Source: an uncultured Gammaproteobacteria bacterium (GTDB lineage Bacteria > Patescibacteriota > Patescibacteriia > UBA11705 > JABHMO01). Taken from it: DNA of 64,000 nucleotides. Of this stretch, positions 1,406-57,261 are shown piece after piece. Where the stretch lies: the NCBI GenBank assembly GCA_964590105.1, contig CAZPYM010000001.1, positions 366,172 through 430,171 on the forward strand, written 5' to 3'. Each line of letters starts with the position of its first letter. Position 1 is the stretch's first letter. The notes beneath the pieces are model-generated. The model made no database searches. It saw only the letters and a list, made by a program, of their open reading frames with translations, and was not told the DNA's origin. The position numbers and the translations under genes are program-made.

Positions 1406-1951
1406 TTATTCAATTTCCTCAATTTTTTTCTTCAATCTGGCAATTTTTCCGAACAAGCTGCCTTCAATAACCGTATCTTTGATTTTTAGTCTGAGCCCAC
1501 CCAAAATTTTTTCATTTACCACATTTTTCAGAACCACTTCCCCTTTTAATTTTTCTTTTACCAGCGCCGCTATTTTTTCTTCTTGTTCCGGCGACAGAGG
1601 AATGGCTGATTCCACTATTACTTCTGCCAATTGCCTGTTATTTAAATTTAATTTTTTTGCTTGTAATATAATCTCGCTCAAATAATTTAGTTTCCCAGCG
1701 CGAATAAGCATCAAAATAACATTATAAGTGCGCTGACTGATAAAATCTTTAAAAATATCAACTAACGCAGCAGATTTTTTTTTCAGAGCCACTTGTTTGT
1801 CCAATAAAAAAGTTTTCAAATCCAAATGAAGATTGATTTTCTCATCAACATCAGTCAAATCCGCGATTAATTCATCAAAACACCCGCATTCCTGGCCTAT
1901 TTCAACCAGAGACCCTGCGTAATGTTTTGTTCTGGCAATTTTCATAAACAA
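1406..1951 (-). CDS. atpH: ATP synthase delta (OSCP) subunit
   Basis: The 181-aa ORF sits between atpF and atpA and has an OSCP-like helical N-terminus. Confidence 0.8.
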   Translation of the reverse strand: MFMKIARTKHYAGSLVEIGQECGCFDELIADLTDVDEKINLHLDLKTFLLDKQVALKKKSAALVDIFKDFISQRTYNVILMLIRAGKLNYLSEIILQAKKLNLNNRQLAEVIVESAIPLSPEQEEKIAALVKEKLKGEVVLKNVVNEKILGGLRLKIKDTVIEGSLFGKIARLKKKIEEIE

Positions 1952-2467
1952 TTATTTTGTAAATTCCGCGTTGCGCAAATCATCAATTGTTTCATCTATC
2001 AGTTTCCTGTGAGTTTTTTCATCAATATTCCCGCCGGCAATCCGACCCAAAGCGAGCGCCACCAGGCCGCCAAGTTCATCTTTTACGTCGCGCACCATGA
2101 GCTCCCTTTCGGCGCGAATTTGCCTTTCAGCGTCATGCAATATTTTTTCAGTTTCTTTATTGGACTTTTCCAGTTTTTGCCGCCGCACATCTTCTGCTTC
2201 TTTTTCCGCTTTGTTGATCAGCGCTTGCGCTTCTTTTCTGCCCTTTTTAACTTCCTTTTCTTTGTCCTTCTTGATCTGCTCCATGGCAATTTCAATTTTT
2301 TCCGCATTAGCAATACTTGCTTTTATTTTATCTTCACGCTCTTTCATTATTTTCATCAGCGGCTTCATGGCAAAGAGCCAGAGTACCCCAAGCACAATAG
2401 TAAAATTTACTGCTTGAGCAATTAAAAGTTTCCAATCAATGTAAAATGTTTTAATTAAATCATCCAT
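1952..2467 (-). CDS. atpF: ATP synthase F0 subunit b
   Basis: An N-terminal TM helix is followed by a long charged E/K/A-rich helix, at the expected operon position. Confidence 0.85.
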   Translation of the reverse strand: MDDLIKTFYIDWKLLIAQAVNFTIVLGVLWLFAMKPLMKIMKEREDKIKASIANAEKIEIAMEQIKKDKEKEVKKGRKEAQALINKAEKEAEDVRRQKLEKSNKETEKILHDAERQIRAERELMVRDVKDELGGLVALALGRIAGGNIDEKTHRKLIDETIDDLRNAEFTK

Positions 2468-2581
2468 ATGTATTAGTTAAAAGTTAAAAGTTGAAAGTTA
2501 AAAGCGGAAAACAATTACGGACAAAACTAATTCAAATAACATTCTCTGGCCTGCTCCGGCAAACGGAGCAGAGACAAAATA

Positions 2582-2800
<219 letters not shown>

Positions 2801-2884
2801 TCACACGGCTTTCGAATCGACTGGAAAATTTATTTTTAAAGTCGTTCTTGTCCGTTGATTATATTATATATTAATTAAAATAAC

Positions 2885-3778
2885 TTAATGAGCTTCCTCA
2901 GACATGGCAATGGTAAAATAAACCAAAGCCAGCATGGCAAAAATTAACGCCTGGACAGCGCCGACAATAATTTCCAAAAACATGAATGGGATTGGCAATC
3001 CGAAGGCAAATATTACGGCGATTGAAGACAACAAGACTTCGCCGGCAAAAATATTTCCGAACAAACGAAAAGACAATGATGCCACTTTTGCAACTTCGCC
3101 AATAATTTCCACCAAACCGACAAAAAATTTAATTGGGTTAACAATAATAATACTCGGCTCTTTCCGAATTCTGAAGGGAATCTGCCAGAGCGCTTTTAGA
3201 TTAATAAATTTATTAAAATATTTCCAGCCGCCAACAACCACAATACCCAAAATATTTGCCCCGATAACCGCAATCAATGACAGAGCCAAGGTTGTATTTA
3301 GATCTGCCGTGCCGCCGCGGAAATATGGTACGAACACTGAATGGCCGGAAATATTTTCAATAAAACCGATCGAGCCAATGCCCGGCAAAAGCCCCAGCCA
3401 GTTATTCAACAAAATGAAAACAAAAAACGTAAAAACAATAGGGAAAATTCTAAATGATTTCTTTTTATCATTAGTTACTGAATTACACAAGCTAACGCCA
3501 CCCTCAACAATAAGCTCAAAAATATTCTGGATGCCTTTTGGAATTTTTTTTAATTTAGCCCGCAGCACAATTGAAATCAATGCGATTATCAAAACAACAA
3601 TCCAGGTATTCATGAGCGAATTGGTAATGGGAAAATTTTTGTAATGCCAGATTGCTTCTGCACCAAGCGAAATTTCATGTTCCGCGTGGCCAGTTGGCCC
3701 TGTCGTCAAAGCTGAACCTCTCTCCGGCAAAATACCAGTTCCGGCGCCTTCGATTGTATTTTCACTATTAACCGACAT
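2885..3778 (-). CDS. atpB: ATP synthase F0 subunit a
   Basis: A polytopic membrane protein with the conserved Arg-containing helix (LSFRLFGNIFAGE). Confidence 0.9.
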   Translation of the reverse strand: MSVNSENTIEGAGTGILPERGSALTTGPTGHAEHEISLGAEAIWHYKNFPITNSLMNTWIVVLIIALISIVLRAKLKKIPKGIQNIFELIVEGGVSLCNSVTNDKKKSFRIFPIVFTFFVFILLNNWLGLLPGIGSIGFIENISGHSVFVPYFRGGTADLNTTLALSLIAVIGANILGIVVVGGWKYFNKFINLKALWQIPFRIRKEPSIIIVNPIKFFVGLVEIIGEVAKVASLSFRLFGNIFAGEVLLSSIAVIFAFGLPIPFMFLEIIVGAVQALIFAMLALVYFTIAMSEEAH

Positions 3779-3781
3779 ATT

Positions 3782-4045
3782 TTAAGATTTTTTTTCTTTA
3801 TTCGCCTTGTCAATTTTTTTCATTGCCGCCGCGGTCTGCTTGATCAACCCGAACATTGTAACGGCAAATGCAAGTCCGACGCAAAGCAAAATAAAAAAAG
3901 GCTCACGATCATATCTATCGTCGAGCCAGCGTCCGATAAACAAAGCAAGCAAGATCGGGAAAACAATCCAAGCTGATATCTGGGCGAACAGGGAAATTGC
4001 CGGCTGCCACCACGGTTCAATATGCTTATTTTTCTCTAATGTCAT
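3782..4045 (-). CDS. AtpZ/AtpI-like small membrane protein of the ATP synthase operon
   Basis: The 87-aa two-TM protein lies immediately upstream of atpB in the operon. Confidence 0.55.
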   Translation of the reverse strand: MTLEKNKHIEPWWQPAISLFAQISAWIVFPILLALFIGRWLDDRYDREPFFILLCVGLAFAVTMFGLIKQTAAAMKKIDKANKEKKS

Positions 4046-4144
4046 AGTTTAAAATCACCTTAATACTACCATGAACGCAAAATAATTTCAATCATTTTCT
4101 GTGTATAAGCCACTCCCCCCGAAACATTTTTATTGGCCAATCGA

Positions 4145-4996
4145 TCAAACCAATTGAAAAAGTTTTCTTGCGTTTTTATCCAACTTTTCTACTGCTATGT
4201 CAAATGCAAAGTTCTTCACCTCCGCTATTTTCTTTACCACAAATTCAACAAAAGCCGGCTCATTGCGCTTGCCTCGATTTGGCACCGGGGTCAGATAAGG
4301 ACAATCTGTCTCTGAAACGATTCGATCAAGTGGAACTCCTTCCAAGCTTTGCTCAACCAGGCCGGTCTTATCAAAAGTAATGAGTCCATTGAATCCGATA
4401 TAAAAACCAAGCTCAATAAATTTTTCAACTAATTCCGGACCACCAAGATAACAATGCATCACGCCCCTTTTGTTCGGCATGTTTTTCTGAAGAATTTCCA
4501 GCATTTGAAAATATGCATTAGTCACATTTTGCTTATCGCCACGGCAGTGAATAATCATCGGTAAATCGAGTTCATTGGCCAGATCAATCTGCCGGGTAAA
4601 AACACTTTTTTGCAATTTAATTACTTCCTCTCTATCGTCCCCTACTTCAATATGATAAAAGTCCAGTCCGGTTTCGCCGATCGCCACAATCCGCGAACTG
4701 GATTTTCCCAGCTCTAAATATTTTCCATAATCAAACTCCTCGGCGCGGGAAATAAATTCAACATTTTCGTTTTTATCAACTTCCAGACAGATTCCTTTTT
4801 GCTTCAAATGAATCGGGTGCAGACCGATTGCCGCATAAGAATTGAATTTTTCCGCCATTTTAACGGCCCTCGCGCTGGTCGAGTATTGCGAACCAACATT
4901 AATCATGACGACGCCCTTTTCCAGCGCGCGCGCCATCACCTCGTCTGCATCATCTTTATAAGCATTAAAATTTACGTGAGCGTGAGTATCGAACAT
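4145..4996 (-). CDS. tatD: TatD-family metal-dependent hydrolase/DNase
   Basis: The N-terminus MFDTHAHVNF and overall TIM-barrel TatD pattern are present. Confidence 0.85.
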   Translation of the reverse strand: MFDTHAHVNFNAYKDDADEVMARALEKGVVMINVGSQYSTSARAVKMAEKFNSYAAIGLHPIHLKQKGICLEVDKNENVEFISRAEEFDYGKYLELGKSSSRIVAIGETGLDFYHIEVGDDREEVIKLQKSVFTRQIDLANELDLPMIIHCRGDKQNVTNAYFQMLEILQKNMPNKRGVMHCYLGGPELVEKFIELGFYIGFNGLITFDKTGLVEQSLEGVPLDRIVSETDCPYLTPVPNRGKRNEPAFVEFVVKKIAEVKNFAFDIAVEKLDKNARKLFQLV

Positions 4997-5028
4997 AATA
5001 AATAGTGAGCAGTAAGGATCGCTTAACC

Positions 5029-6546
5029 CTACTTTCTTAAAAATAACGGCTCCCCTTTTTTAACCTTAGTACCGGTCGTAATCTTACCAACTTGAATAGA
5101 TTCTTTATATGAACAATCTGCCTCACCAAGTCGTTTTAAAATTTCAGTGGAAGCTTCAGGCAAAATCGGTTTTACCAGCCAGCCCAAATGCCTTAGGATT
5201 TCTAACAAATTATATATCACCTGATCAAGTTCTTGTTGTTTTCCTTCTTTTGCCAGACTCCATGGTTTTGTTTCGTCAATATAGCCGTCGCACCAACGGA
5301 TCGCTTCCCAAATTTCCTTTAAATTTTCAAATACTTTATATTCCGCAAAACCTTTATCAATTTTTTTCCACAACTTTGCCAAATCTAATTCGGCCTTGAA
5401 TTTTTTATCCGGCACTTTGGACTCGCAATATTTTTCAGCCATGCTCAAAACTCGGCTTACCAAATTACCCAACCCATTGGCGAGATCTGAATTGTATTTA
5501 ATTGGAAATTCTTCAACTTTTACATCGCCATCCTGTCCAAAAATAAATTGAGAAATCACCAGGTAACGGGCGGCATCAGTTCCAAACTGTTCAACCAAAT
5601 CATTTGGATCAATCACATTGCCCAAAGTTTTGCTCATTTTTTTGCCATCAAGCGTGAAGTAGCCGTGCACAAACAAATCTTTTGGCAATGTAATTTCCGC
5701 AGCCAGGAGCATTGCCGGCCAAATAATGCAGTGAAATTTCAAAATATCTTTTGCCAACAAATGAACGTCAGCCGGCCAAAATTTTTTGAACTTTTCACCG
5801 TCTGGGAATCCAAGCGCGGAAATATAATTAATCAGCGCGTCAACCCAGACATAAGTTGTCTGACTTTTATCAAAAGGCAATGGAATCCCCCATTCAACAT
5901 TCGCCCGGCTAAAGGCAACGTCCTCGAGTCCCTGCTTGATAAAACTTAAAACCTCATGCTTTTTATCAGCCGGCAAAATCCTGATTTCGTCTGATTCAAT
6001 TTTTTGTTTCAGAATTTTGGAATAAGCAGACAAACGAAAGTACCAATTTTCTTCTGATAATTTTTGCGGCTCTTTATTGTGATCAGGGCATTTGCCGTCA
6101 ATTAGATCTTCTTCTTTTTTATACGATTCACAACCAACACAGTAGAGCCCTTCATAGATCCCCCTAAATATAACATCTTCGCCCGCTGAAGTTTTCGCTG
6201 ATTTTAATTTGGTTAAAACTTCCCGGACAACCTTTACATGCCGATCCTCTGTCGTGCGAATAAAGTCATCATTACTAATATTCAGTTTATCCCAAGCCGC
6301 CCTGAACTCAGCCGAAACATCATCGCAAAATTGTTGGGGCGATTTGTTTTGCTTTTCAGCCGACTGCGCCACCTTGGCTCCATGCTCGTCAGTCCCAGTC
6401 AAAAACCAAACATTGTCGTTCCCTAATTTAAAACGATAATAACGCGCCAGCACATCAGCGATAATCGTAGTGTAGGCATGCCCAATATGCGGCCGGTCAT
6501 TAACATAATAAATCGGCGTTGTGATATAAAATTTTTTCATAAACAT
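5029..6546 (-). CDS. metG: methionyl-tRNA synthetase
   Basis: The HIGH-like motif (PYYVNDRPHIGHAYT) and KMSKS motif (KMSKTLGNVIDP) are both present. Confidence 0.9.
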   Translation of the reverse strand: MFMKKFYITTPIYYVNDRPHIGHAYTTIIADVLARYYRFKLGNDNVWFLTGTDEHGAKVAQSAEKQNKSPQQFCDDVSAEFRAAWDKLNISNDDFIRTTEDRHVKVVREVLTKLKSAKTSAGEDVIFRGIYEGLYCVGCESYKKEEDLIDGKCPDHNKEPQKLSEENWYFRLSAYSKILKQKIESDEIRILPADKKHEVLSFIKQGLEDVAFSRANVEWGIPLPFDKSQTTYVWVDALINYISALGFPDGEKFKKFWPADVHLLAKDILKFHCIIWPAMLLAAEITLPKDLFVHGYFTLDGKKMSKTLGNVIDPNDLVEQFGTDAARYLVISQFIFGQDGDVKVEEFPIKYNSDLANGLGNLVSRVLSMAEKYCESKVPDKKFKAELDLAKLWKKIDKGFAEYKVFENLKEIWEAIRWCDGYIDETKPWSLAKEGKQQELDQVIYNLLEILRHLGWLVKPILPEASTEILKRLGEADCSYKESIQVGKITTGTKVKKGEPLFLRK

Positions 6547-6567
6547 TATTAGTGAATAAGCGGCTGA

Positions 6568-7215
6568 CTATTTTGCAGAAACAATAACAACGAATTCGCC
6601 CTTGAACATTTTTTTTACTTGTTCAAAAACTTCGCTGATATTTCCTCGATAAATCGTTTCGAATTTTTTAGTAAGTTCCCGACCAACTACAACTTTTCTA
6701 TTCTCGTCAAGATAATCTTTCAATTGCTCCAATGTTTTCAAAATTCGATGCGGCGATTCATAAAAACAAATTGTGACTTTGGAATCTCTGATTGATTCCA
6801 TGATTTTTGTGCGCCCCTTGTGGGGCATGAAGCCCATAAATAAAAACTTGTCCGTTGGCAAGCCGGAAACGCTGAGCGCCGTGGCAATTGCGGACGGGCC
6901 AGGAATCGGCACGACTTCAATTCCCAAATTGACAGCCGCTTCAACCAATTTTCCGCCCGGATCAGAAATACCTGGCGTGCCGGCGTCAGAAACATAGGCA
7001 ATATTTTCAAATTGGGATAACATTGCTTTTATTTTTTCATCAGAAGAATGCTGGTGCAGGCTGATTAATTTTTTTTCAATGCCAAAATGATCAGTCAATT
7101 GTCTGGTATGCCTTGTATCTTCGCAAAGTATAACATCAACGCTTTTGAGTATTTCAAGAGCGCGCAGTGTTATGTCCTGCAAATTACCGATTGGAGTAGC
7201 AACAATATAGAGCAT
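6568..7215 (-). CDS. rsmI: 16S rRNA (cytidine1402-2'-O)-methyltransferase
   Basis: The N-terminus MLYIVATPIGNLQDIT..LCEDTR matches the tetrapyrrole-methylase fold of RsmI. Confidence 0.85.
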   Translation of the reverse strand: MLYIVATPIGNLQDITLRALEILKSVDVILCEDTRHTRQLTDHFGIEKKLISLHQHSSDEKIKAMLSQFENIAYVSDAGTPGISDPGGKLVEAAVNLGIEVVPIPGPSAIATALSVSGLPTDKFLFMGFMPHKGRTKIMESIRDSKVTICFYESPHRILKTLEQLKDYLDENRKVVVGRELTKKFETIYRGNISEVFEQVKKMFKGEFVVIVSAK

Positions 7216-7467
7216 ATGGGAAAAAATAAAAAATTAATAAATTAAAAACAATAAACAATAAACCGTTTTTCGTGATTTCTTGACTTGATTATAGCAAACT
7301 GCCGAATTCTGTCTATATTTAGAAAATTGAATCATCTATTATTTCAATTCATTATGTGTGATAATTTTACGATAAAATTGGCTACAGGACCGGTTAATCG
7401 TGCGTAAAGCCGTTCTGTAACAACACAGGTCGAATATTTTTTTGTAATTTTACACAACCAACACCTA

Positions 7468-7496
7468 TTGACAAACTTATTAATATCTGCTATAAT
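7468..7496 (+). promoter_or_regulatory. consensus sigma70-type promoter (TTGACA-17-TATAAT)
   Basis: TTGACA lies at 7468-7473, followed by a 17-nt spacer and TATAAT at 7491-7496. Both hexamers are perfect. Confidence 0.6.
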
Positions 7497-7502
7497 ACCT
7501 TT

Positions 7503-7960
7503 TCAGTTGATTTTTTCTTTGACCGAAAAGGAGGTGACAGTGCACTGGCCGTAGCGTTTCAAAAACCGATAGACAATGTCAACATTCGCGGGCGAGCCCA
7601 CCACGGCCGGGCGAGTCCAATGAGCGGCGCCAGAGGAGGTGATCGGAGTGCGCTACACTTCCGGTTTTCCCTAGCACAGTGAAAGCGGGTTCGCAAGAGC
7701 CCAAATTCTCCACGATTTTTTACTTCCTGTAATCGTGCAGAAGATGCAAAGAGGCCCCTACCCGGCTACGGCGCGGGAGGACAGGAAGCTCTGCTTCGCC
7801 ATATGAACGGGATTCGGCGAACAGAGTATGAACTCGAACTCGCAACACGGAGGTTCCGGTGTACACATCCGGTTTTGATTAACTACCCGGAATTCATTTT
7901 CCGGGCCCAACTACCCCGCCCCCCCCTACCACGACTGGCAGATCAGGGGGGCTTTTTTTA
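7503..7960 (+). ncRNA. structured ncRNA, candidate RNase P RNA (rnpB-like, possibly reduced)
   Basis: This is a GC-rich, ORF-free stretch inside an AT-rich genome, flanked by a perfect promoter and an intrinsic terminator. It contains a GNRA hairpin GGGUUC-GCAA-GAGCCC (7687-7702). GUGAAAG..GCAAGAGCCC..AAAUUCUCCAC resembles the conserved RNase P A-type string GUGAAAGGGUGCGGUAAGAGCGCACC...AAACUCCACC. The 5' AAAACCG (7562-7568) can pair with the 3' CCGGUUUU (7869-7876), as in P4, with ACACAU preceding the 3' strand. Two AAGGAGGUGA(UC) stretches complementary to the 16S 3' tail lie at 7528-7537 and 7633-7644. Confidence 0.45.
7918..7960 (+). terminator. intrinsic terminator
   Basis: A C8 run pairs with a G6 run (7919-7926 / 7946-7951) and is followed by T8 (7953-7960). 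Confidence 0.7.
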
Positions 7961-7994
7961 TAATAAAGATTACTGATTTATCCACAACAACTCT

Positions 7995-8023
7995 TGCCTT
8001 GATAATTTAAAATTATTATAATA
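7995..8023 (+). promoter_or_regulatory. sigma70-like promoter (TTGCCT-17-TATAAT) with a DnaA box just upstream (7979-7987)
   Basis: TTGCCT at 7995-8000, a 17-nt spacer and TATAAT at 8018-8023. TTATCCACA sits at 7979-7987. Confidence 0.45.
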
Positions 8024-8029
8024 AAAACA

Positions 8030-8325
8030 CGTTCTCAAAATGGAGAAGGACGTAGGGACTCGGACCACGAAACTTAGGAGGGACATGGAAAAATTCGGCT
8101 GATACAATCAGAACGAGTAAACGGGACCGAAAAGTCTCACAACTGCGAAGTATCCTAAAAGGACGGCCATGCCCGTCGCGCAGCACAATCCAAAAGGCAC
8201 CGCGCTAGATCGCGTTCTCACCTCGGAGGGAGGCACTGACAATAATGGGCAAACCAGCCCAAAGTCAACTCCTTAATAGTAAGGTGGCAGAGAACAGATC
8301 AACACAGCCGGTGCATTTTTTTGTA
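8030..8325 (+). ncRNA. second GC-rich ORF-free transcript (unclassified structured RNA or long structured leader of the methyltransferase gene)
   Basis: About 290 nt of elevated G+C with no ORF, local hairpins (for example GACGG-CCAUGC-CCGUC) and a T7 run at 8316-8323. I could not match it to SRP RNA, tmRNA or 6S RNA by eye. Confidence 0.3.
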
Positions 8326-8389
8326 ACAAAATACATCCGCGGCCAATCATCATCTTTTAAAAATTGATTGTTACTGCTACAATCTTATT

Positions 8390-47886: not shown

Positions 47887-48318
47887 TTATATTCCCAGTT
47901 CCCCCAATTGCTCGGCAATTTCGTTACCATCTTTTTCAGTTTTATTTTTATATAAATTCCATTTGTCTTCATCCCAAATTTCCAATCGATTGAATAACCC
48001 GGCAATGACAACTCTTTTTTTAATACTTGAATACTCTCGTAAATAATCAGGCAGCATTATCCGGCCCTGCGAATCCAGTTTTACATCCATGGCTCCGGCC
48101 AACATAAGTCTGGAAAAAGCCCGGCTATTGGCCTGGCTTGTTGGTAAAGACGCTAATTTTTTGGCGTAAACCGTCCACTCTGTTTTTGTATATACAAAAA
48201 GGCAGTTATCAAGCCCGCGGGTAACAACGCTGCCGGATTTTAAAGCGCTCCTAAACTTGGCCGGAATAGCTAACCGACCCTTGTCATCCACTGAATAATT
48301 GTATTGTCCGATAAACAT
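47887..48318 (-). CDS. mraZ: transcriptional regulator MraZ
   Basis: Duplicated DxxxR motifs (VDDKGRLAIPAKFR, LDSQGRIMLP). Confidence 0.9.
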   Translation of the reverse strand: MFIGQYNYSVDDKGRLAIPAKFRSALKSGSVVTRGLDNCLFVYTKTEWTVYAKKLASLPTSQANSRAFSRLMLAGAMDVKLDSQGRIMLPDYLREYSSIKKRVVIAGLFNRLEIWDEDKWNLYKNKTEKDGNEIAEQLGELGI

Positions 48319-48403
48319 AGGGTACGGATGTACAGATTGAAGCTATTAATTTTCAGTAGCGAATCTGTATGTCTATAAGATAACAAAAGAAAAGCGTTAA
48401 GAA

Positions 48404-48589
48404 TTATCCACAATTCCCCACTTTTCTTCACTCTGCCTACATTATACCCCACAACAACACAGAGAACAACACTTTGGTTGTGGATAAAGTATTGGCTAAA
48501 ATTGAATTATTTTTCTAAAATCAACTACCCTGCCTAATTAACCGCTATGATGTGATAATTAAATCATCACCTTTTCATGCTGTGGATAA
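48404..48589. promoter_or_regulatory. cluster of three perfect DnaA boxes
   Basis: TTATCCACA at 48404-48412, and TGTGGATAA at 48479-48487 and 48581-48589, in AT-rich DNA between mraZ and the 814-aa gene. Confidence 0.6.
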
Positions 48590-48697
48590 CTTAAATAAAA
48601 CAAACAACCTATTTACTCGATTGACAAAGCAACGCCAATTATATAAGATTAATCATCAAGAACTAATGAACATTGACAACAAAACGGAGGTTCTCCC

Positions 48698-51142
48698 ATG
48701 GAAATAAAAACCGCCGATAAAATGGGAATGGAAGCGGTCCAAGACATTGTTAAGGACAAATCCGTCGCCCGCAGAATCTTCGCCCTGCTTGGCAGTGGGA
48801 TCAAAGTCAGCGAAGGCGCGATCGAGCTCATGATTAGAGAATCGGTTGAACAGGCCGTCATGCGGTCACTGCTTTTTCATCCCGGCCTAAAACAGGCCGG
48901 AGCCAGGCTTGATCAAGCCGCATTGGAAAAACTGCTGTGTGAGGTCATCAAAGAAAATTTCAAACGCAAATTTAAAAGCCGCGGCCTGACCGATCGGTCG
49001 CCGCTGGACCAGATCACGCGCGAGCTGGGGCTTTGCCTGGAACTCGCGGTGCAGGAAGACGCCAGGGAAGATACCTGCGAAGAATTAGCTGTCACAGAAG
49101 ACGGCGTTATTGACGCCCAATTTGAGGATGAGGCTGACGATCTGATTGATTTTGTCACCATTGCCCTTCAGGATGAGCTTGACGCGTCAAAAGGCGCGCT
49201 CATGGTTGTTCGCCAAGAACGCGGAATTTTATCCGCCAAGGGTCCTGCGAACATTTTTTCCTTACCGCAAGTGGCGGAAAGATTACAAGCCGGCTTGCTG
49301 GAAGAAGCGGAAAAATGGGGACGAGTACTTTTCACTCTGCCCATGATTGCCGACCCTGATGAATTCGAGGACAAGATTCGGTCTCTGAATCCAGCCATGC
49401 AGGCTCCAAATATTCAGCCTCAATTTATCAGCCAGACAACGATTGGATTTGGCAATCGACCGGCCAGATCCAGGAAAGTGATCGCCGAGGTATTGCGCGA
49501 CCACTTAAATCCCCGGCTAATGGAAAGTATTGCTCTTGTCTGTGATCCAGAAAAACCCGAGGAGCTGCAAACCGAAGCAATTAATTTGCTCATCGGTTAC
49601 CTGCAACGATTGGAACATTCAATTGAAATAACGTTAACCGCTATTTCGCTTGTAAAAATCATGGAGGAAAGCAACAAGCCTCGGGTAAGACAATATGTTT
49701 TTCAAAAACTTGGTGAAAATATTGTCACCATCCGGGCTAAGCTGCCGAACTTTTTTCAAAACAGCCGTATTTTACCAATGCTCAAAGGTCTTCTGCTTAC
49801 AGACACAAAAACATTCAAAGCTCCGGTCTGCCAATTCTTGCGGAGTTTCAACCAAGGACAGGGAGAACAAAGCCCTGTTGCCGCGGCGATTCGGGAAGAC
49901 CTGGAAATCACCACCGACCCAAAAGTGGTGGCGATTTACCTGGGCCTTCTGCACGAATTTGAAACTGATGCCAAATGCAGAAGTCAGCTGGAACGACAAA
50001 GATGGGAACTCTTTTTCACCTATGGCAACACCGAGGCAGAACTGGCGGAGGAATTTCTGTCAGATGTCAGAGCGGCCATGCCGTCATCACTTAGCACCCC
50101 GCTTGCCTGCTTTAACGAATGGGAAGAAGTAAAACAATTGCGCCTGATCGCGGTTCTTGATCGCGAATTTGAACTGGCCCTGGCTCATTCACCAAAAGAC
50201 ACGAAAACTGCCAAAAAGATTGCCCTATTCTTTGCCGTAACAATCAGAGATTGCCGAGAGGCGGTCCGCATCCAGATACTCAAAACAAAAAGCACTCTGG
50301 CTGGAGTTTTCGAAGCTGACTACAACAATGCCTTCTGGCTGCCCCTCGGATCCCGGCTGATTGAACTGCTTGCGGACGCTGAATTTGAAGCGAATTTCAT
50401 TATCGCAGGACATGTTCACCTGGCGAATTTCGCCGCGCTCGTGGTTGGCTTGACCAATCCTGCGGCCAAAAAACAACTCTTGACAGTGGCTGAGAAAAAA
50501 GTCAAGGCAATTCAGACCGGCAGCCAAAGTCTAAATGAACAAACCGACAATGTCAGAGAAGCGATTTCCCTGCTGCTCTCAGAAACAGCAGGGGTGATCC
50601 AGGAAGCCAAAAGAATATCAGAAGCAGAAAAGTATTTCCACTGCTACATCAGCATGATGCGATCCGCGTTGCTGACCAAGGCACTTTTCCACCAGCATGT
50701 GCTGGAATTGGCCAGAGCAATCAAGGACAAGCCACGGCTCAAACCGTTGCTCATAAACGCCTATTCTGATTTCAGCCGCAGCCGCCTGCAAAGTCGCGAG
50801 TTGGCAGAATTTCTGCTCGACATTTTTTTGCAGGCAGTCCGAGACAATAGCCCGAAGCCTTCTTCCAGCGACGGTAAATATGAACAGTTGAGCGATATTT
50901 GCAATGACGCGCTCGAAGGCCTGGTTGCCTTGTCCTTGTCAGTTTTTCTGTCCAAGGGACAATGCCAGGCAATCATTCGAGTTTTCAAGATGCACTGTGA
51001 CAAGCGTCCCCAGATCATGACCCAATTCAGGATGGTTGACGGGATTGGAGTAAAACCCCAGCCGGTGCCTGATCCTTTCAAAGAAGCGCTGACAGTGACG
51101 CTCGCGAGAATTGATCCGTCAGCTGACCCTGACATGCTTTAG
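48698..51142 (+). CDS. hypothetical GC-rich 814-aa alpha-helical repeat protein
   Basis: A long ORF with a GGAGG RBS. Its helical-repeat (HEAT/ARM-like) character is inferred from periodic L/A/E-rich segments. G+C is visibly higher than host genes. Confidence 0.6.
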   Translation: MEIKTADKMGMEAVQDIVKDKSVARRIFALLGSGIKVSEGAIELMIRESVEQAVMRSLLFHPGLKQAGARLDQAALEKLLCEVIKENFKRKFKSRGLTDRSPLDQITRELGLCLELAVQEDAREDTCEELAVTEDGVIDAQFEDEADDLIDFVTIALQDELDASKGALMVVRQERGILSAKGPANIFSLPQVAERLQAGLLEEAEKWGRVLFTLPMIADPDEFEDKIRSLNPAMQAPNIQPQFISQTTIGFGNRPARSRKVIAEVLRDHLNPRLMESIALVCDPEKPEELQTEAINLLIGYLQRLEHSIEITLTAISLVKIMEESNKPRVRQYVFQKLGENIVTIRAKLPNFFQNSRILPMLKGLLLTDTKTFKAPVCQFLRSFNQGQGEQSPVAAAIREDLEITTDPKVVAIYLGLLHEFETDAKCRSQLERQRWELFFTYGNTEAELAEEFLSDVRAAMPSSLSTPLACFNEWEEVKQLRLIAVLDREFELALAHSPKDTKTAKKIALFFAVTIRDCREAVRIQILKTKSTLAGVFEADYNNAFWLPLGSRLIELLADAEFEANFIIAGHVHLANFAALVVGLTNPAAKKQLLTVAEKKVKAIQTGSQSLNEQTDNVREAISLLLSETAGVIQEAKRISEAEKYFHCYISMMRSALLTKALFHQHVLELARAIKDKPRLKPLLINAYSDFSRSRLQSRELAEFLLDIFLQAVRDNSPKPSSSDGKYEQLSDICNDALEGLVALSLSVFLSKGQCQAIIRVFKMHCDKRPQIMTQFRMVDGIGVKPQPVPDPFKEALTVTLARIDPSADPDML

Positions 51143-51281
51143 AAACACAAACCCACGTTTGATTCATTCAACGCGGGTTTTATTTTTTAAGTAAAATCGT
51201 GAATATTAATAATATAACTCCAAATCGAAAAAAAAAGAGCGACCTGATGGTAGCTCTGATGATTGGATGTATGAACTGAAT

Positions 51282-51533
51282 TTATTCAGCTGATTTCTGA
51301 ATCGGCATGCTACCGAACAGTTTTGCAAAGAACTGTTTGATTTTGCCGGGCGGCGGAAAAGTGCTCAGCGCGGCCTGTCTGGCTTTTCCACAGCCCTCGC
51401 AAAAATCCGCGCTCGGGTACAAAGACGTATCGCACCAGTTACAGCGTGGTAGAAAAGTCATCTCTACACCACAGGCTGTGCAATACTTTCCACTTGAAAC
51501 ACGATGGCAATTCGGACATTCACGCATTTTCAC
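51282..51533 (-). CDS. hypothetical double zinc-ribbon protein (GC-richer)
   Basis: CPNCH...CTACG...CNWCD...CEGCG. Confidence 0.5.
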   Translation of the reverse strand: MKMRECPNCHRVSSGKYCTACGVEMTFLPRCNWCDTSLYPSADFCEGCGKARQAALSTFPPPGKIKQFFAKLFGSMPIQKSAE

Positions 51534-51632
51534 TCCTCCTTTATTAAGGCTGTACGCAAACGTTCACATATCAGGATAGTAATATATCAAACATTTGTCA
51601 AGCCGGCGGCGATGATAGCGCTTTGATTTATT

Positions 51633-51710
51633 GGTTGACTAGTTGATTTATTAACCGAAAAACATTTGCTTCAATCAACTAATAAACTAATAAACCAATC
51701 AACTAACCAA
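51633..51710. repeat. imperfect inverted repeat built from AATCAAC-type units
   Basis: TTGGTTGACTAGTTGATTTATT ... AATAAACCAATCAACTAACCAA. Confidence 0.4.
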
Positions 51711-55032: not shown

Positions 55033-57261
55033 ATGGATAATAACCACGACATCTCAATTGAAGAAATCTACATTCCAGCCAAGAACGACAAGGAAACTTA
55101 CCTTTGCGAAGATTTTATTGTTTATCCGGAAGGCAAAGAAAAAAACGGCGGCTATCTAATGGGAATCATCGAAATCCGGGCGACTGCGGTGGCTGAAAGC
55201 GAAAAGATTATCCAAACAATTATCAATACTCTCAAGGATAATTACTATGATCAGATAAACAGCTCCCCTGATCCAAAAAAGCTAAACCTTGAAACGGTTT
55301 TCGAATACGCTCTGCAAAAAACAAATTCCGCTTTGGTGGAAATGATCCAGATCGGCCATATCAACTTAGTCTTGGAAAATCTCAATTACTTGATCGCCGT
55401 AGCCAAACCAAATCTCCAAAACCGGGATATTGATTTTACTTTTGCCCACCAGGGATTGATAAGCGTATATTTGCTTCACAAAACCAAACAAAACAACTAC
55501 AAAGTCATTGACGTCGTCGGTAATACGCCGCGCTCCCGAGAAGATCAAAACGATAAAATTAAAATCTTCTCCTCCACCCTCTCCGGCAAAGTATCCCACC
55601 GCGACGCGCTATATATTTGTTCAGAAATTTTTGGCAATTACATCCCCGCTCACAAAGTAAACAAAATTCTTTCAACCAATGATCTCTCGACCAGCGTTGA
55701 TTATTTCAAAAACCTGATCAATAACGTAAAAAACAATTCTCATCTCACCTACTGCGCGCTCTTTATGAAAATGGAAGAAAAACGTAGCCTGTCCGAAGAG
55801 CCAATATCACAAAAATCCATTAATAATCTCATTTCGACAACTGAAAAAACTGAAAAATATTTGACCCCCACTTTTGCCCTAAATATCCGAGACCTAATTC
55901 GCCGGGCCTTTTCAGGAATGAAAAGCAGAGAAAAAGCAACCCAGAGATTGCAAAGCCCTGACGGACAAAAAAGGGTTTCTTTCGGGATCCTCAAATATAT
56001 TTTCAATATTTTTAAAATCATCTTTATCTTCATCGGAAAAACATTCAGCAAAATATTTGCCATTATCACAGGCAAGCAAAAGCTCCACCTTCTTCCCTTG
56101 AAAAAAACACTGGCCATTCCGAAAACAATAATTTCCAGATCAGCCGGAGGACTAAAATCCCTGCATAAAATCAATAAAACTATTTTAGCATCTTTGTTAG
56201 TTTTAGTGATTCTTCTAGTTTCTGGGATCTTTTGGGTTCGGCATCGAGAACAAACCAAACAGGAACAAACTGCCTATGCGGCTCAAGTGCAAGTGATCAA
56301 AGAACTTATAAACAATGCTCAAGTAAATTTAATCTATAAAAACGAAGAGCAAAGTCTGGCTCTGATCAAAGAAGCAGAAGAAAAAACAAGTTATCTACCT
56401 CAAGCCAGCGCCAGCCGGCAGGCAAATTATCTTGAATTACAAAATCAGGCCAGCGCCATAAAAAATAAATTATTGCATGTTGAAAATGTAGTTCCTCAAT
56501 TGATTACCGAGGTTGGCGCGAACGAAACGCCGGTTCAATTAACAAAAATATCAAAAATCGGCGATAAACTATACGTTAATGCCAAAGACGCTGATTTGTA
56601 CGAAGTCGCATTAGGAGACAAAAGCGTAAATTTATTTGCTCACTCGCAGGCCGGCGACCTGGCAACAACTATTCAGGACGACAAAAATTTGATGTTTATT
56701 ACCAATCAAAGCAAATTGATACAGTTAAATGCTACTGATAAATCATTTTCCACCAAGTCAATCAACTGGCCAAACAGCGCCGAAATCAAAGCCGCCATTC
56801 TCTACAATAGCAAAATATACGCCCTCGACACTGTAAATCAGCAAATTGCCAAATACCAGGCCAGTGGCGACAACTACGGCAGTCCGCAAAATTGGATTAA
56901 AGACAAAAAAGACGCTGATCTTTCAGACGGCGCCAGCTTGGCTATTGACGGCAATATCTATGTCCTGACAAAAAAAGGCAAAATTTATAAATTCTACACC
57001 GGTAAACTGGAAGATTTTGAAGCTCGAACAATCGAGCCCGCCTTGACTGAAGCTCAAAAAATTTACGCTTCAGCCGATCTTCCCTACCTATATATCTCCG
57101 AGGCCGGCGGCAAACGCATTATTTTCCTAAATAAGGACGGCAGTTTATCAAAACAATATTTATTTGATACGCTGGACAGCGCAATCAGCGATTTTACTGT
57201 GAGCGGCGATCAAATCTATATGGTTTCCGGCAATAAAGTTTACAGCGCAACAATTCAATAA
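55033..57261 (+). CDS. hypothetical 742-aa membrane protein (cytoplasmic N-domain, central TM helix, extracytoplasmic beta-rich C-domain)
   Basis: A TM segment ILASLLVLVILLVSGIFWV lies mid-protein. The N-domain is possibly PP2C/SpoIIE-like (a weak impression only). Confidence 0.5.
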   Translation: MDNNHDISIEEIYIPAKNDKETYLCEDFIVYPEGKEKNGGYLMGIIEIRATAVAESEKIIQTIINTLKDNYYDQINSSPDPKKLNLETVFEYALQKTNSALVEMIQIGHINLVLENLNYLIAVAKPNLQNRDIDFTFAHQGLISVYLLHKTKQNNYKVIDVVGNTPRSREDQNDKIKIFSSTLSGKVSHRDALYICSEIFGNYIPAHKVNKILSTNDLSTSVDYFKNLINNVKNNSHLTYCALFMKMEEKRSLSEEPISQKSINNLISTTEKTEKYLTPTFALNIRDLIRRAFSGMKSREKATQRLQSPDGQKRVSFGILKYIFNIFKIIFIFIGKTFSKIFAIITGKQKLHLLPLKKTLAIPKTIISRSAGGLKSLHKINKTILASLLVLVILLVSGIFWVRHREQTKQEQTAYAAQVQVIKELINNAQVNLIYKNEEQSLALIKEAEEKTSYLPQASASRQANYLELQNQASAIKNKLLHVENVVPQLITEVGANETPVQLTKISKIGDKLYVNAKDADLYEVALGDKSVNLFAHSQAGDLATTIQDDKNLMFITNQSKLIQLNATDKSFSTKSINWPNSAEIKAAILYNSKIYALDTVNQQIAKYQASGDNYGSPQNWIKDKKDADLSDGASLAIDGNIYVLTKKGKIYKFYTGKLEDFEARTIEPALTEAQKIYASADLPYLYISEAGGKRIIFLNKDGSLSKQYLFDTLDSAISDFTVSGDQIYMVSGNKVYSATIQ

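Follow-up and report, generated by a model that had tools for sequence, protein, structure and literature searches.

A rare alpha-solenoid gene divergent from mraZ in Patescibacteria, with a high G+C content best explained by allele import from a GC-richer relative

The window analyzed here is a stretch of 64,000 nucleotides from an uncultured bacterium (GenBank assembly GCA_964590105.1, contig CAZPYM010000001.1, positions 366,172 to 430,171), and the object of this report is a GC-rich gene on its plus strand that encodes a protein of 814 amino acids (aa), together with a small zinc-ribbon gene that converges with it. Our best explanation, to which we assign as a whole a probability of about 0.55, is that the 814-aa open reading frame (ORF) would be a genuine gene for an alpha-solenoid protein of a rare family, acting as a scaffold; that its allele would have been imported; and that the zinc-ribbon gene would be a separate unit. 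On sequence grounds, the best explanation of the GC-richness is that a related Patescibacterium of higher GC content supplied the allele, which entered the same slot.

The original prediction had described the two genes as an island of atypical composition, similar to another one, 13 kb away, that holds a gene related to the major vault protein (MVP). With 57 host genes as reference (GC 0.402 ± 0.031; GC at third codon positions, GC3, 0.398 ± 0.047), the genes in question show the following values:

814-aa gene: GC 0.495, GC3 0.531, z 3.0 (GC) and 2.8 (GC3)
Zinc-ribbon gene: GC 0.492, GC3 0.488, z 2.9 and 1.9
MVP-like gene (33153-35879): GC 0.517, GC3 0.573, z 3.7 and 3.7

The atypical composition of the 814-aa gene and its small neighbor was thus confirmed, and so was the identity of the MVP-like gene, which matches MVP_shoulder (5.8e-22) and Vault_3 (1.3e-10) and lies 12.8 kb away. 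The remark that plus-strand genes are rare also holds: in a window of about 40% GC almost every gene is on the minus strand, with roughly 6 of 60 on the plus strand. The idea that both islands cluster together fared less evenly. The two large genes do head the GC3 ranking of 60 genes (MVP first, the 814-aa gene second), but codon usage shows no clustering once the GC shift is set apart, as the distance in relative synonymous codon usage is 0.429 between the MVP-like and 814-aa genes and 0.426 between the 814-aa gene and the host pool. A codon signature common to both was therefore rejected, since nothing is shared beyond GC. Along the 814-aa gene, GC3 per 100-codon window is high throughout (0.42-0.63) and drops off at the ORF boundaries, and no mosaic structure was seen inside the gene.

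The 814-aa gene is accompanied by a complete set of expression signals:

48698..51142, plus strand: gene for the 814-aa alpha-solenoid protein (ORF, full-length orthologues and AlphaFold2 model)
48621..48649, plus strand: promoter-like site TTGACA, 17 nt, TAAGAT (pattern scan)
48666..48679, plus strand: leader motif ATGAACATTGACAA (core in relatives, CATTAACAA) in the interval between promoter and ribosome-binding site (comparison across lineages)
48686..48690, plus strand: ribosome-binding site GGAGG, 7 nt 5' of the ATG (sequence)
51149..51188, plus strand: terminator, a hairpin followed by a U-run (−12.8 kcal/mol, z −3.3 against shuffles)

Because a promoter-like site, a ribosome-binding site and a terminator go together with full-length conservation in 14 clusters, the 814-aa ORF is, judging from these signals, a genuine and independently transcribed gene. 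A simple pattern scan had not listed the terminator at 51149-51188. The orthologues in L001, L007 and L008 (handles of this kind designate related lineages and loci) are preceded by matching TTGACA/T and TAAxxT sites, as judged by eye, and orthologue N-termini keep the pattern M-x-I-K-T-A. The window shares the leader motif with core CATTAACAA with L001, L007 and L011, while L014 and L020 have variants of it; the motif is specific to loci that carry the gene and is missing from the spacers of L019 and L021, where the slot is empty. A phage, plasmid or viral origin was rejected, as no relatives are found in phages, plasmids or viral contigs. The segment that holds the 814-aa and zinc-ribbon genes contains no integrase, Rfam RNA family match, tRNA or meaningful flanking repeats.

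What the protein may do can be approached through its predicted fold. An AlphaFold2 (AF2) model built on the 14-sequence alignment reached a predicted local distance difference test (pLDDT) value of 84.5 and a predicted template-modeling score (pTM) of 0.60, and was used instead of a poor two-sequence model (pLDDT 58). The model comprises the following elements:

Residues ~1-120 plus a strand at 153-157: N-terminal alpha/beta domain (AF2)
Residues 123-150: acidic disordered loop (AF2)
Residues ~190-770: HEAT/ARM-like helical hairpins, about 34 helices (AF2)
C-terminal end: beta-hairpin and helix with a conserved PDPFK motif (AF2 and orthologue alignment)

The protein had been described as all-alpha, a claim that is correct after residue ~190. 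The accompanying statement that it carries no recognizable motif was upheld: neither the 814-aa protein nor its relatives match Pfam, NCBIfam, PADLOC, PHROGs or PDB sequences in single-sequence and profile searches, and no Pfam profile, whether of HEAT/ARM repeats or of any other kind, is matched at E ≤ 0.01 in any of the 14 members. In a Foldseek comparison with the PDB, every one of the 47 matches at E ≤ 1e-3 is a HEAT/ARM solenoid (best 8.5e-5), among them the PP2A A subunit, karyopherins, CAND1 and CAP-G; with TM-scores of 0.2-0.4, they point to a class of fold but to no particular relative. The few invariant residues are polar and hydrophobic positions scattered along the superhelix, including a basic RPxRSRKVIAEV stretch, and form no catalytic pattern. 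As the model shows a long helical superhelix without a catalytic signature, the most likely mode of action, drawn from the fold alone, is that of a non-enzymatic binding scaffold or adaptor; the 814-aa protein would be a cytoplasmic alpha-solenoid that binds other proteins. One distant member of the family, P0131 (L010 3057-3780), has an extra N-terminal region of about 240 aa (residues 1-240) without detectable domain; a macro-domain was considered for this region and rejected, as nothing was found in PDB or Pfam at E ≤ 10.

The family is small. A word-index search returned a single relative, with 53% identity, and HMMER, run exhaustively over 1.84 billion representatives, yielded 14 clusters in all, with full-length conservation. 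For the neighboring penicillin-binding protein (PBP), the nearest orthologues bear the names Ca. Kuenenbacteria and Ca. Falkowbacteria, and the GTDB record of L014 is titled Patescibacteria. Hence, the family appears to be very rare, unannotated and confined to Patescibacteria of the Falkowbacteria/Kuenenbacteria type.

In seven lineages (the window, L001, L007, L008, L011/L012, L014 and L020) the gene occupies the same slot: it diverges from mraZ, the first gene of the mraZ-rsmH-ftsL cluster, and a TsaB-like gene comes after it. Protein identities are 27-53%. The contigs of L007 and L020 reach only the mraZ side of the slot, and L014 was recovered with a neighboring 742-aa gene as anchor, since the back-translated patterns of the first GTDB scan were too strict. 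In L015/L019 and L021 the gene order is the same and the slot is empty, with a spacer of about 190-260 bp and no remnant. Presence or absence among close relatives, an evolutionary rate about twice that of the neighbors and a tree that disagrees with theirs suggest an accessory, fast-evolving locus.

Several side observations concern the same loci. The 742-aa protein encoded at 55033-57261 (plus strand) has no Pfam domain and is found with 37-60% identity in L001, L008, L014 and L015, which makes it clade-specific; paralogy between this other plus-strand gene and the 814-aa gene was rejected, as none was detected. L007 carries at 1722-7465, between ftsL and tgt, four tandem paralogous genes of about 475 aa each that are missing in other lineages, and the sole copy scanned (6041-7465) has no Pfam match. 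The contig of L015/L019 (CAZMEQ010000003.1) shows the gene order and protein identities of the Patescibacteria clade, so that its title, 'uncultured Gammaproteobacteria', is probably a mislabel. In L008, the contig end upstream of tgt (470-1160) has about 60% GC, compared with about 43% elsewhere in the genome, and shows no MVP match.

A foreign source common to both islands had been raised as a speculative possibility. Because the mraZ-tsaB slot is conserved in seven lineages, the 814-aa gene does not appear to be a recent alien insertion, and no signs of mobility accompany it. The part of the claim that survives is an excess similarity of both the 814-aa and the MVP-like genes to one lineage, SRR22387951 (L001/L005), together with a conflict between trees. 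Among 21 lineage pairs, 20 show 29-40% identity in the 814-aa protein, and the remaining pair, formed by the window and L001, shows 56%; the flanking genes do not single out this pair. Seen from the window, the protein is 53% identical to the SRR22387951-lineage copy, compared with 27-32% to relatives whose flanks are equally or somewhat less close. Of 11 backbone genes shared with L020, 9 are nearer to the window than those of L001/L005, and 1 is tied (for example, MraZ 92% vs 71%, and LexA 89% vs 84%). Despite this closer backbone, the L020 copy of the 814-aa protein is only 32% identical to that of the window, against 53% for the L001 copy. Neighbor-joining (NJ) trees reflect the discrepancy. 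The tree of the 814-aa protein groups the window with L001 (bootstrap 100%) and L011 with L014 (86%), while the backbone tree, made from four genes and 978 columns, groups L001 with L014 (82%) and the window with L020 and L021 (56%).

The MVP-like protein behaves in a similar way, with 71% identity between the window and L005 and 43% between the window and L018, even though the backbone of L018 is equally close (LexA 85%, MurF 72%). The L001/L005 lineage is also GC-richer: its locus has a GC content of 0.47 and its neighbor genes a mean of 0.48, with 0.525 in the orthologue of the 814-aa gene and 0.593 in that of MVP. The simplest mechanism would be that both alleles were imported from a GC-richer relative and later underwent partial amelioration; the donor-like lineage would be SRR22387951, the very one with which MVP shows excess similarity. 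Regarding the features by which genomic islands are recognized, base composition is atypical and phylogeny is incongruent (with respect to four backbone genes), and the slot is empty in L019/L021 and filled in six others.

The 92% identity of MraZ (window 47887-48318 vs L020 1896-2327) deserves a separate comment, as the adjacent RsmH and TGT are 66-71% identical. It may be due to strong constraint or to recombination over a local tract.

A number of points weigh against the explanation proposed. The backbone tree is small, was built by NJ and has moderate support, and a signal like that of transfer could also arise from uneven rates. In GC3, the family gene also exceeds its neighbors in L001, L007, L008 and L011 (+0.08 to +0.17), and a single import into the window lineage leaves the excess in these four other lineages unexplained; a locus-specific bias, either intrinsic or linked to recombination, may add to the GC excess. 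The two most distant members, L010 and L013, are not located beside mraZ. Lastly, the function proposed is read from the predicted fold, for which the Foldseek matches are generic and have low TM-scores.

Some of these points are accommodated by a purely vertical history, which we consider doubtful, although it is the alternative that survives best. The gene would be ancestral and lost in L019 and L021, rates would be uneven, and the GC3 bias would be specific to the gene, as might result from amino-acid and codon constraints or, at a locus prone to recombination, from GC-biased gene conversion. Retention of the slot in seven lineages fits this history, and so do the lack of mobility signatures and the fact that GC3 is above that of the neighbors in 5 of the 7 syntenic lineages; in addition, a composition rich in A, L, E and R lifts GC1 and GC2. 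A vertical gene would not be expected, however, to produce a tree in conflict with that of the backbone, nor an identity between the window and L001 that is 16-26 points over every other pair at similar backbone distance. Furthermore, L014 lacks the GC3 offset and L020 has a negative one, and host genes with high expression (L10, L7/L12, enolase) show no richness in GC3, which makes a codon bias linked to expression unlikely. Allele import remains for these reasons our preferred reading, and its wider implication would be that a 'GC island' can stem from allele exchange among related lineages of differing GC at a conserved slot, without being a classical mobile island.

The region between the start codons of mraZ and the 814-aa gene contains the following elements, listed with the related boxes elsewhere in the window:

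48319..48697, no strand assigned: divergent control region common to mraZ and the 814-aa gene, with MraZ-type GTGGG repeats, the mraZ −10 box and TGTGGATAA boxes
48404, 48479 and 48581: TGTGGATAA boxes in the mraZ spacer, conserved in relatives
7978, 32356, 48404, 48479 and 48581: DnaA-box 9-mers (TTATCCACA), the last three in the mraZ spacer

Next to the −10 box of mraZ, at 48404-48435, the lineages conserve three GTG(G/A)(G/A) repeats with 10-bp spacing, which resemble a MraZ operator of the kind described in E. coli and Mollicutes. Perfect matches to the DnaA-box consensus (TTATCCACA) occur five times in the window, compared with 0.53 expected, and GC skew shows no replication origin in the window. 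The boxes upstream of mraZ are conserved in L001, L008, L011 and L014 as well as in L021. As they are kept in L021, where the slot is empty, the TGTGGATAA boxes would belong to mraZ and not to the 814-aa gene, and their candidacy as regulators of the latter was rejected.

This arrangement might be taken to mean that the 814-aa protein is a scaffold for cell division or the cell envelope, working with the division and cell wall (dcw) machinery (MraZ/RsmH/FtsL/FtsI/MurF) and co-regulated with it through the divergent region, a role compatible with either evolutionary scenario. We regard it as improbable. It is true that the divergent arrangement is kept at identities as low as 27-53%, that the spacer is shared and contains MraZ-type repeats and conserved boxes, and that one of the distant members is placed some 4 kb downstream of ftsK. 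On the other hand, the gene is dispensable in relatives with an identical dcw cluster (L019, L021), the boxes persist in the empty-slot genome L021 and so would serve mraZ, the 814-aa gene has a promoter-like site and a leader motif of its own, and the distant members are found in unrelated contexts.

The small gene that converges with the 814-aa gene has its own signals:

51282..51527 (81 aa, ATG) or to 51533 (83 aa, GTG), minus strand: double zinc-ribbon gene with four CxxC pairs (ORF and Pfam DZR)
51573..51601, minus strand: promoter-like site TTGACA, 17 nt, TATCCT (pattern scan)
51228..51257, minus strand: terminator, a hairpin followed by a U-run (−13.8 kcal/mol, z −3.7)

The ATG at 51527 is the likelier start, as in public gene callers, and an AGGAGG sequence visible by eye 7 nt 5' of this codon would be the ribosome-binding site. 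The description of the product as a zinc-ribbon protein with four CxxC pairs stands: CPNC, CTAC, CNWC and CEGC are found at residues 6/9, 18/21, 31/34 and 45/48, and the alignment with Pfam DZR has an E-value of 8.9e-6 and 26.2 bits, just below the gathering cut-off of 27.3 bits. The protein forms a singleton cluster present on 6 contigs, and its gene is not found in the orthologous loci of L001, L007, L008, L011, L014 and L020. On the 3' side of the 814-aa gene, L001 carries a 99-aa ORF that is unrelated, and L008 and L011 carry no gene. From its signals and distribution, the zinc-ribbon gene is apparently a separate, strain-specific transcription unit, a passenger and not a conserved partner. 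An AT-rich inverted repeat of 26 nt (85% complementary) is located at 51623-51698, upstream of the promoter of the zinc-ribbon gene; the stop codon of tsaB comes right before it.

The variable 3' neighbor (the zinc-ribbon gene here, the 99-aa ORF in L001, none in L008 and L011), together with fast evolution, patchy presence and tree incongruence, is what one would expect if the 814-aa gene were a rapidly evolving accessory gene involved in anti-phage defense or in the interaction between an episymbiont and its host. We find this very unlikely, as no member tested matches PADLOC or PHROGs, the sequence shows no effector-like domain, signal peptide or transmembrane segment, and the gene is a single-gene unit outside any defense island. 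Among the other proteins tested with PADLOC models, only noise was obtained.

A functional link with the MVP-like gene had also been raised as a speculative possibility. Full-length MVP-like genes lie beside orf96-lexA in three lineages:

33153-35879, minus strand, window: MVP-like gene
L005, 3905-6454: MVP-like gene
L018, 10001-12916: MVP-like gene

They share 43-71% identity, and in all three lineages the gene is the top GC3 outlier (+0.17 to +0.25); it is not at the same site in L019 and L020. Co-occurrence with the 814-aa family was judged on contig loci and their flanks rather than on whole genomes. Among PBP-anchored loci that span both slots, the window and the SRR22387951 lineage (two contigs) have both genes, L020 has the 814 family without MVP, and L019 and L021 have neither. 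The proposal was not borne out: besides L020, where MVP is absent from the syntenic site and from the 22 kb available, the two genes are never adjacent, MVP is far more widely spread, and no cis-motif is common to them. We consider a functional link unsupported by these sequence comparisons, and what the two genes have in common would be their history.

Two candidate links were tried and discarded. An SOS connection between MVP, the 814-aa gene and lexA/dinB was rejected because GAAC-N7-GAAC boxes are found only at the lexA promoter and at 7819, and the only Cheo-type box is one chance match. A 'TGAACA' leader shared by the 814-aa gene and the small ORF upstream of MVP was rejected as well: it occurs in 3 of 67 genes, compared with about 1.4 expected, and is not kept in L005 or L018.

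Eukaryotic vaults carry the large accessory proteins PARP4 and TEP1 (10.64898/2026.05.01.722283), and by analogy the 814-aa solenoid could be a lineage-specific partner of the MVP shell, either a scaffold, a cargo adaptor or a lumenal protein, acquired along with MVP. The presence of both genes in the window genome and the SRR22387951 lineage, their place as top GC3 outliers and their excess similarity between the same two genomes are in line with such a role. We nevertheless give it very little credence. In L020 the family is present, and its 22 kb hold no MVP, whether at the conserved helicase-HD/orf96-lexA site or elsewhere. The flanks sequenced for L007, L008, L010, L011, L013 and L014, which extend over a few kb to 10 kb, contain no MVP either. 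Within the 12.8 kb that separate the genes, those housekeeping genes that could be compared with both relatives lack the anomalous similarity. MVP-like proteins make up more than 1,800 clusters in many phyla, against 14 for the 814 family. No similarity to PARP4 or TEP1 domains and no common cis-motif were detected. The least probable proposal of all is that the solenoid family and MVP form a two-gene module moved between related Patescibacteria by homologous replacement at fixed slots, with the solenoid as internal scaffold or cargo adaptor of a vault-like particle; if true, prokaryotic vaults would have in the solenoid their first candidate partner protein.

The surroundings of the MVP-like gene provided additional observations. 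MVP-like proteins are known in Cyanobacteria, Myxococcales and Cytophagales (10.1101/872010), and our literature search returned no report linking MVP with Patescibacteria. Just upstream of MVP, a GC-rich ORF of 139 aa (36073-36491, minus strand) had been overlooked by a simple longest-ORF pass; relatives of it were detected solely in L005 and L018, the loci that carry MVP (43-56% identity), and it has no family match. The only tRNA found is a tRNA-Glu(CTC) at 38008-38082 (minus strand), 2 kb from the MVP gene. Within 36643-37856, none of the related loci contains an orthologue of the methyltransferase gene (37032-37856), and the only match of orf114 is a weak one (34%) in L020. Relatives carry at this position a helicase, plus an HD protein in 3 of 4 loci, and for this reason the MVP locus seems to be rearranged on the methyltransferase/orf114 side. 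The lexA promoter (32295-32343) is bracketed by GTTC-N7-GTTC and GAAC-N7-GAAC direct repeats, presumably a LexA box of the alphaproteobacterial style. A third copy of the GAAC-N7-GAAC type is located at 7819-7833, in an ORF-free stretch of 1.1 kb (7216-8389) that also holds a DnaA-type box.

Unannotated alpha-solenoid proteins are common, and the finding is, on its own, modest. It offers, however, a concrete candidate to those who study cell division and accessory functions in Patescibacteria: a rare, clade-restricted family with a confident predicted fold and a fixed place. It also removes a tempting but unsupported tie to the neighboring vault-protein gene, the MVP gene being the more interesting object.

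Comparison with known systems helps to place both proteins. With PARP4 (vPARP) and TEP1, the sole likeness of the 814-aa protein is that they are large proteins from genomes that also encode an MVP shell protein; unlike them, it has no PARP, MINT, TROVE, NACHT, WD40 or TIR-like domain (Pfam, PDB sequences), and, unlike vault partners, its family is not co-distributed with MVP. The small protein resembles Pfam DZR (PF12773) proteins in having four CxxC pairs as two zinc ribbons, aligned over profile positions 1-45, and differs from them in that it falls under the cut-off, is a stand-alone mini-protein with a 30-aa tail and has no orthologue in related loci. HEAT/ARM scaffolds such as the PP2A A subunit, importin-beta/karyopherins, CAND1 and the condensin subunit CAP-G share with the predicted fold a superhelix of stacked hairpins without a catalytic motif; in contrast with them, the 814-aa protein matches no HEAT/ARM Pfam profile, adds an N-terminal alpha/beta domain and an acidic disordered loop, and is bacterial (Patescibacteria). 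To our knowledge, no dcw-associated protein of the alpha-solenoid kind has been described. The 814-aa gene is dispensable in close relatives; like the genes that diverge from mraZ at the dcw head, it keeps its position at the mraZ promoter/operator region.

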